DNA from: Escherichia coli
GTDB taxonomy: Bacteria; Pseudomonadota; Gammaproteobacteria; Enterobacterales; Enterobacteriaceae
Assembly: GCF_003334815.1 (NCBI RefSeq)
Contig: NZ_QOWO01000007.1
DNA length: 64,000 nucleotides
Reading direction: 5' to 3' (one strand)
Part shown: in pieces, positions 22,503 through 23,585 of the stretch
Layout of the letters: each line of letters opens with the position of its first letter
Position numbering within the stretch: position 1 is the stretch's first letter
Notes under the pieces: model-generated
The model's database searches: none
The model's input: only the letters and a program-made list of their open reading frames with translations
Told to the model about the DNA's origin: nothing
Translations under genes and position numbers: made by a program

Positions 22503-23585
22503 ATGGCTCAGCTTTCGTTACAACATATTCAAAAAATCTACGATAACCAGGTGCATGTGGTGAAGGACTTCAACCTGGAAATTGCCGATAAAGAGTTCAT
22601 CGTGTTTGTCGGCCCGTCGGGCTGCGGTAAGTCGACCACCCTGCGCATGATTGCCGGGCTTGAGGAGATCAGCGGCGGCGATCTGTTGATCGACGGCAAA
22701 CGAATGAATGACGTTCCAGCCAAAGCACGCAATATAGCGATGGTGTTCCAGAACTACGCGTTGTATCCGCATATGACGGTTTACGACAACATGGCGTTTG
22801 GTCTGAAGATGCAAAAAATCGCCAAAGAGGTGATTGATGAGCGGGTGAACTGGGCGGCGCAAATTCTCGGCCTGCGTGAGTACCTGAAACGTAAGCCGGA
22901 GGCGCTTTCCGGCGGGCAACGTCAGCGAGTGGCGCTTGGGCGGGCGATTGTACGCGAAGCGGGCGTGTTTTTAATGGATGAACCGCTCTCTAACCTTGAT
23001 GCCAAGCTGCGCGTGCAAATGCGCGCAGAGATCAGCAAGCTGCATCAGAAACTGAACACCACCATGATCTACGTGACCCACGATCAGACCGAAGCGATGA
23101 CCATGGCGACGCGGATTGTGATTATGAAAGACGGGATTGTTCAGCAAGTAGGTGCGCCGAAAACCGTTTATAACCAACCCGCGAATATGTTTGTTTCCGG
23201 ATTTATTGGATCACCAGCGATGAATTTTATTCGCGGCACGATCGATGGCGATAAATTCGTTACGGAAACGCTTAAATTAACCATTCCCGAAGAGAAATTA
23301 GCGGTTCTGAAAACACAGGAAAGTTTGCATAAGCCCATCGTGATGGGAATACGACCGGAAGATATTCATCCGGACGCGCAAGAGGAAAATAACATTTCCG
23401 CCAAAATTAGCGTGGCAGAATTAACCGGTGCGGAATTTATGCTCTACACCACGGTTGGGGGGCACGAGTTAGTGGTCCGTGCTGGTGCGTTAAATGATTA
23501 TCATGCAGGAGAAAATATCACTATTCATTTTGATATGACGAAATGTCATTTCTTTGATGCAGAAACGGAAATAGCAATTCGCTAA
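22503..23585 (+). CDS. ycjV: ABC transporter ATP-binding subunit (MalK-like), intact 360 aa
   Basis: ORF 22503..23585; Walker A GPSGCGKST, signature LSGGQRQRVALGRA; uninterrupted reading frame. Confidence 0.9.
   Translation: MAQLSLQHIQKIYDNQVHVVKDFNLEIADKEFIVFVGPSGCGKSTTLRMIAGLEEISGGDLLIDGKRMNDVPAKARNIAMVFQNYALYPHMTVYDNMAFGLKMQKIAKEVIDERVNWAAQILGLREYLKRKPEALSGGQRQRVALGRAIVREAGVFLMDEPLSNLDAKLRVQMRAEISKLHQKLNTTMIYVTHDQTEAMTMATRIVIMKDGIVQQVGAPKTVYNQPANMFVSGFIGSPAMNFIRGTIDGDKFVTETLKLTIPEEKLAVLKTQESLHKPIVMGIRPEDIHPDAQEENNISAKISVAELTGAEFMLYTTVGGHELVVRAGALNDYHAGENITIHFDMTKCHFFDAETEIAIR

Follow-up and report, generated by a model that had tools for sequence, protein, structure and literature searches.

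We analysed a 64,000-nucleotide stretch of Escherichia coli DNA (hereafter, the window), in which a single ATG-started open reading frame (ORF) on the + strand, at 22503-23585, encodes a protein of 360 amino acids with zero internal stops, as read from both the ORF list and the raw sequence. The gene lies between ycjU (pgmB) and ompG, as it does in K-12, and this position together with its near-identity to the K-12 copy identifies it as the ycjV orthologue; the same arrangement was repeated in 13 other genomes. ycjV is the tenth gene of the ycjMNOPQRSTUV-ompG operon, which is repressed by YcjW, and kojibiose releases YcjW from DNA in vitro (PMC6599011). The synteny from ycjM to ompG and ycjW was the same as in K-12, with 99.96% identity over 52 kb. 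The features of the locus around ycjV were as follows.

11898-13577: ycjM, intact in the window
13591-14883, + strand: ycjN, lipoprotein substrate-binding protein, intact, 430 aa, lipobox LISGC; one difference from K-12 (A238 here, T238 in K-12)
14904-15785, + strand: ycjO, MalF/UgpA-like permease, intact, 293 aa, EAA loop at residue 195; identical to K-12
15772-16614, + strand: ycjP, MalG-like permease, intact, 280 aa, EAA loop at residue 174; derived G16E
23591-23608, no strand assigned: GC-rich stem-loop, palindromic, GGGGGAAGGCATTCCCCC, lying in the spacer of 44 nt that separates ycjV from ompG
23630-24535, + strand: ompG, monomeric porin, the operon's last gene; identical to K-12
24646-25644, - strand: ycjW, LacI-type repressor of the ycjM-V/ompG operon (K-12 annotation; PMC6599011)

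The preliminary description had stated that ycjV completes a YcjNOP-V transporter. The gene set is indeed complete: ycjN, ycjO, ycjP and ycjV are all full length, that is, the binding protein, the two EAA-loop permeases and the ATPase of a type I ABC importer are intact at the gene level. YcjO matched MalF/UgpA models and YcjP matched MalG/UgpE models in NCBIfam, and for YcjN no NCBIfam family reached E 1e-20.

The stem-loop in the ycjV-ompG spacer has a perfect 7-bp stem (GGGGGAA-GGCA-TTCCCCC), is the same in K-12 and has no + strand T-run. An Rfam scan of 21500-25000 at gathering thresholds gave no match, either to this element or elsewhere in or beside ycjV. Promoter and terminator counts in a scan of 22300-24700 were not above those of shuffled sequence, and we claim no internal promoter or terminator. 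Between window positions 23462 and 34890, there were zero differences from K-12.

Sequence and structure of the encoded ATPase

The features of ycjV itself are listed below, with the evidence for each in brackets.

22493-22496, + strand: AGGA Shine-Dalgarno sequence or ribosome-binding site, 6 nt 5' of the ycjV ATG (direct sequence reading)
22503-23585, + strand: ycjV coding sequence, 360 codons plus stop, MalK/UgpC/MsmX-type ABC importer ATPase (ORF list, Pfam, PDB search, K-12 alignment)
22611-22634, + strand: Walker A or P-loop GPSGCGKS, residues 37-44 (regular expression on the translation)
22899-22901, + strand: codon 133, GAG (Glu), derived G133E, two residues before LSGGQ (alignment, allele polarisation)
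22905-22919, + strand: ABC signature LSGGQ, residues 135-139 (motif scan; S136 and G138 invariant in the alignment)
22965-22982, + strand: Walker B VFLMDE (residues 155-160), followed by the D-loop SNLD (residues 163-166) (motif scan)
23079-23081, + strand: H-switch H193 (motif scan; invariant in the alignment)
23208-23555, + strand: C-terminal regulatory domain, OB_MalK 236-288 plus TOBE_2 282-351 (Pfam, AlphaFold2, Foldseek)
23457-23462, + strand: G6 homopolymer, codons 319-320, Gly-Gly; G5 in K-12 (alignment)
23463-23582, + strand: 40 C-terminal codons, residues 321-360, untranslated in K-12 (K-12 frame comparison, alignment, AlphaFold2)

With the Q-loop at Q83, located by motif scan of the translation, all six motifs of the ABC nucleotide-binding domain (PF00005) were present in order, indicating that YcjV is a member of this family. 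In an alignment of 43 homologues, Walker A residues G37, P38, S39, G40 and K43 were invariant, as were D159, E160, S163, N164, L165 and D166 of Walker B and the D-loop. Pfam placed ABC_tran at residues 21-162 (E 2.3e-31), OB_MalK at 236-288 (E 6.5e-14) and TOBE_2 at 282-351 (E 1e-9). The uninterrupted frame of 360 codons with Walker A, the ABC signature and a C-terminal regulatory domain, as first described, was thus confirmed by the ORF list, motif scan and Pfam. An identical copy in strain 300709 is annotated as 'ABC transporter ATP-binding protein' (WP_000057955.1).

The AlphaFold2 model, built on the 43 homologues, reached a mean pLDDT of 93.1 and a pTM of 0.89, and its regulatory domain was all-beta (pLDDT 82-96). 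Using Foldseek, the model superposed over its full length on MsmX, AlgS, MalK and SugC at TM 0.87-0.95. In phmmer searches against the PDB, residues 1-360 aligned with Bacillus subtilis MsmX (6yir) at E 5.5e-149 and residues 1-353 aligned with E. coli MalK; MsmX 6yir ranked nearest, followed by AlgS, archaeal MalK and E. coli MalK.

The last 40 residues were considered separately, as a lack of homology to MalK-type regulatory domains would have spoken against the preliminary description. They are homologous to these domains. The alignments of YcjV to MsmX and 7x0q extended to the final residues, and the model placed three beta-strands in this segment, at 321-328, 338-343 and 349-352 (pLDDT 92-96). 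The segment also carries a conserved H-x-F-D-x-E-T-E motif, in which F351 was found in 43/43 homologues, D352 in 40/43, T355 in 36/43 and H349 in 34/43.

YcjV scored 483.9 bits against the UgpC-subfamily model NF008653, passing its cutoff of 432, and 430.1 bits against the MalK equivalog model NF008233, failing its cutoff of 568. Therefore, we assigned YcjV as a MalK/UgpC/MsmX-type (CUT1) paralogue and not as MalK itself. The C-terminal OB/TOBE beta-sandwich domain of about 120 residues that defines this type is present in YcjV.

The K-12 lesion and the distribution of the intact allele

The window was colinear with K-12 MG1655 in three segments at 99.96-99.97% identity, with 21 substitutions in 64 kb. 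The segments correspond as follows.

Window 1-37726: K-12 1358319-1396043
Window 37723-52425: K-12 1397239-1411941
Window 52383-64000: K-12 1434959-1446576

Two K-12 elements were missing at the joints. IS5F (K-12 1396044-1397238) was absent at about 37723-37726 of the window, between ynaI and ynaJ, where the flanks overlapped by 4 bases in the BLAST segments, as expected of an unoccupied IS5 target. The 23-kb cryptic prophage Rac (K-12 1411899-1434958) was also absent, and the junction was the 3' end of ttcA, at window 52383-52425. Past ttcA, the uspF, ompN, micC region, ydbK, hslJ, ldhA and ydbH sequence was 99.97% identical to K-12. We had considered a different prophage at the right end of the window and rejected it, as a search of a phage collection and the alignment identified this sequence as K-12 chromosome on the right-hand side of Rac. 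The strain is very closely related to K-12 and has neither Rac, nor IS5F, nor the ycjV frameshift.

Pairwise alignment of 22503-23585 with K-12 ycjV/ymjB showed two differences in 1083 nt (99.8% identity), and the K-12 copy was neither full length nor identical. The first difference is a one-base deletion in the G6 run of K-12, which shifts the frame past codon 320; Thr-Ser and a stop follow, giving a product of 322 amino acids that ends in ...VGGTS and has lost residues 321-360. Replication slippage at the run is presumed to have caused the deletion. The second is A at window position 22900 in place of G in K-12, giving Glu133 here and Gly133 in K-12. The preliminary description gave the K-12 copy as an annotated pseudogene, owing to a premature stop near the C-terminus. 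The pseudogene status was correct, as MG1655 (NC_000913.3) carries ycjV (b1318, 1380821-1381789) and ymjB (b4524, 1381789-1381902) as annotated pseudogene pieces; the stop is also real, but it arises from the homopolymer frameshift and not from a nonsense substitution. The PGAP label on the K-12-type copy is 'frameshifted', and a ycjV change is listed as 'pseudogene (664/957 nt)' in a published mutation table, indicating that the K-12 pseudogene status is in routine use (PMC4786092). Judging from the model, we infer that loss of the 40 residues should disrupt the beta-sandwich regulatory domain.

To place the two alleles in the species, 5426 complete E. coli genomes were searched, and ycjV was found in 5002 of them. 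An exact 66-mer across the 6G run matched 4390 of the 4996 genomes matching the site and an exact 65-mer with 5G matched 369; this exact-k-mer census covered four specified alleles, and about 240 genomes were unclassified at the G run. Nearly all of the census matches extended over 80% or more of the query and therefore spanned the G run. Among the 60 matches listed, the 5G genomes were overwhelmingly K-12 laboratory derivatives (MG1655 sublines, DH5alpha, DH1, C600, J53, NCM3722 and others). The 5G run also occurred in the pathogenic isolates 2014C-3051 and 08-00022, whose ycjV haplotypes are 21 and 5 substitutions from K-12, reflecting either recurrent slippage or homopolymer errors in the assemblies. 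The G6-to-G5 frameshift is annotated in both isolates, with ycjV at 377-1458 of each extracted locus.

The 6G run of the window is ancestral and shared by the majority of genomes, with K-12 as the exception, which reverses the emphasis of the preliminary description. The feature is real and was rightly read: a known gene in its ordinary wild-type form, whose difference in K-12 is already annotated and published. Intact ycjV outside K-12 is likewise on record, in RefSeq annotation and in a study of a K-12-like oral isolate, where one of the ten genes missing in MG1655 is an ABC transporter gene with 99% identity to ycjV (PMC8009128). Taken together, it is very probable that the window carries the ancestral full-length allele and that the K-12 lineage lacks a full-length cognate ATPase, which this strain and most E. 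coli possess.

Proposed transport function in the strain

By analogy with MalFGK2 and from the clustering of the genes, two copies of YcjV would bind the permeases YcjO and YcjP at their EAA loops, and ATP-driven closure of the YcjV dimer and hydrolysis would power the uptake of a glucoside that the lipoprotein YcjN delivers. The sugar would cross the outer membrane through OmpG and, once imported, would feed the YcjT, YcjU, YcjM and YcjQRS enzymes. The transporter may be functional in this strain, as the preliminary description proposed.

No thermal shift was recorded for K-12 YcjN with any of the sugars tried, kojibiose and maltose included (PMC11543891); therefore, kojibiose is not established as a YcjNOP-V substrate. 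MG1655 is reported to be unable to grow when kojibiose is its only source of carbon, despite an active kojibiose phosphorylase (PMC6599011). The ycjV frameshift is a plausible cause of this failure to grow, and the ycj papers considered here draw no link between the two.

Other lineages have independently disrupted other parts of the system. A disrupted ycj gene was present in 6/13 sampled genomes, a small and non-random sample, in the form of five distinct haplotypes and six lesions.

K-12: ycjV frameshift
300709: ycjN -1 frameshift
EJN001 and B20159: ycjN W168*
C9: ycjO -1 frameshift
O157:H7: ycjM frameshift and ycjN Q210*

The exact 61-mer for ycjN W168* matched 189 genomes and that for ycjN Q210* matched 267, and both nonsense alleles were lineage-fixed. 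Three inactivating alleles together (369 genomes with 5G, 189 with W168* and 267 with Q210*) thus account for at least 825 complete genomes. Several lineages thus keep ycjV but have inactivated ycjN, ycjO or ycjM, indicating that the system is dispensable in many settings. In the window, these three genes are all intact. A reading in which the ycj uptake module is a recurrent target of inactivation, with strains like this one retaining the ancestral intact set, is conceivable, and we offer it only tentatively. As a separate and equally tentative point, the frameshift in K-12, along with K-12-specific changes such as YcjN A238T, would explain both the kojibiose non-growth and the missing YcjN ligand. 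If the recurrent inactivation reflects selection and not drift, carrying the transporter would be costly in some niches.

We polarised the differences between the window and K-12 within the operon against 12 other genomes. YcjV G133E, YcjP G16E (15817-15819) and YcjM L439I (13212) were derived in the window lineage and, among the sampled genomes, were shared only with 300709, whereas YcjM Q505P, YcjN A238T and YcjS M299I were derived in K-12. The ycjM-ycjV genes account for seven of the 13 substitutions found in the first 37.7 kb, and the differences inside the ycj genes were six nonsynonymous to one synonymous (ycjQ codon 119). Codon 238 of ycjN (window 14302) encodes Ala in the window and in all 12 other sampled genomes and Thr only in K-12; it was this Thr238 protein of K-12 that was crystallised and that yielded no ligand on screening (PMC11543891). 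Outside the ycj operon, the sole nonsynonymous difference in the first 37.7 kb was at PuuE codon 163 (window 7718), Ser here and Gly in K-12.

The derived G133E in YcjV and G16E in YcjP would, on sequence grounds, count against full functionality. It is accordingly worth weighing whether the frame is intact and the allele nevertheless impaired, so that the transporter is perhaps no more functional than in K-12. Glu133 places a negative charge two residues before LSGGQ, which closes over the ATP of the partner subunit. Codon 133 was GGG (Gly) in 12/13 sampled genomes, including O157:H7 and the B2 strains, and is also GGG in K-12. Exact 61-mers matched E133 (A) in 108 genomes and G133 (G) in 1483, in a census that left about half of the genomes unclassified at this codon, as megablast requires a 28-base exact word. 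Among 118 homologue representatives, the residue was Lys in 73, Arg in 17, Ala in 12, Ser in 7, Gly in 3, Asn in 3, Thr in 2, Asp in 1 and Glu in none, that is, a basic residue in 90/118 (76%). G133E therefore appears atypical among these sequences, although position 133 is not strictly conserved. The excess of nonsynonymous changes in the ycj genes since the split from K-12 points in the same direction, and the only sampled strain with an identical ycjV, 300709, has a frameshifted ycjN. On the other hand, Gly, Ala, Ser, Asn and Thr are all seen at this position, and Gly is the E. coli wild type, so a basic side chain is not required there. The E133 allele has been maintained in at least 108 genomes, from a variety of hosts, and every catalytic motif is untouched. 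On balance, we consider an impaired allele improbable.

A second alternative, which we rate as equally unlikely, is that the strain does not differ in function from K-12, either because the 322-residue product still works or because MalK or UgpC energises YcjOP in K-12. The ATPase core is complete in the truncated product, and roughly two thirds of the regulatory domain remains. MalK and UgpC are reportedly exchangeable in E. coli, a result said to go back to Hekstra and Tommassen in 1993, which would favour such borrowing. Shared 'multitask' ATPases also occur in Firmicutes (PMC7658222), and phenotypes have been reported for a K-12 ycjN deletion (PMC13053599). Nevertheless, the truncation takes three core beta-strands and the F351/D352 motif and, from the model, should reduce the stability of the domain by which MalK-type dimers are held together. 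The reported kojibiose non-growth of MG1655 (PMC6599011) also speaks against functional equivalence, as does the fact that YcjV lacks the four charged residues proposed as the multitask signature and does not replace MsmX (PMC7658222).

A sequencing or assembly error in the sixth G, with the strain really carrying the K-12 allele, can practically be dismissed even though homopolymers are error-prone and the window is otherwise near-identical to K-12 (21 substitutions in 64 kb), since 6G stands in 4390 independent complete genomes and the window also lacks IS5F and Rac and has seven substitutions inside the ycj operon, indicating that it is not a K-12 derivative; an assembly artefact as the source of the intact frame was rejected on the population counts.

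An ancestral full-length ycjV that was truncated in the K-12 lineage matters, in a small but real way, for how the pathway is studied. Most ycj biochemistry, covering kojibiose phosphorylase and the guloside pathway as well as the structure of YcjN and regulation by YcjW, uses K-12, which has no full-length cognate ATPase. Therefore, negative physiology in K-12, such as the kojibiose non-growth (PMC6599011), may reflect the frameshift and not the pathway. A near-isogenic natural strain with intact ycjNOPV, only 21 substitutions from K-12 in 64 kb, would be a convenient background for substrate hunting.

Comparison with MsmX, MalK and a purified YcjV

MsmX (PDB 6yir) is the closest solved structure to YcjV, with 63% identity by Foldseek, an end-to-end alignment, a TM of 0.93 and the same two-domain architecture; the published identity is 64% (PMC7658222). 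The proposed signature of multitask ATPases is the set of charged residues D77, R104, E110 and K154, along with the capacity to energise several importers (PMC7658222). In the alignment with MsmX, YcjV has N77, Q104, V110 and G154 at these positions and thus lacks all four charged residues, which places it outside the multitask (MsmX/MsmK-type) group. Unlike the multitask MsmX, YcjV is encoded inside a dedicated operon, and E. coli YcjV did not complement an msmX null in B. subtilis (PMC7658222).

E. coli MalK, the ATPase of MalFGK2 (PDB 1q12, 2r6g and 3puz), shares its fold and motifs with YcjV at about 46-47% identity and a TM of 0.87-0.92, and both proteins have the C-terminal OB/TOBE regulatory domain. 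YcjV is a paralogue of MalK and not its orthologue. MalK has MalT and EIIA-Glc as regulatory partners, whereas none are known for YcjV.

The most direct comparison is with YcjV itself. Purified full-length YcjV WP_000057985.1 hydrolyses ATP (Leisico et al. 2020, PMC7658222). This protein, the G133 allele found in EJN001, C9 and B20159, is the product of the same gene at the same locus with the same 360 residues, and the window protein differs from it only in E133.
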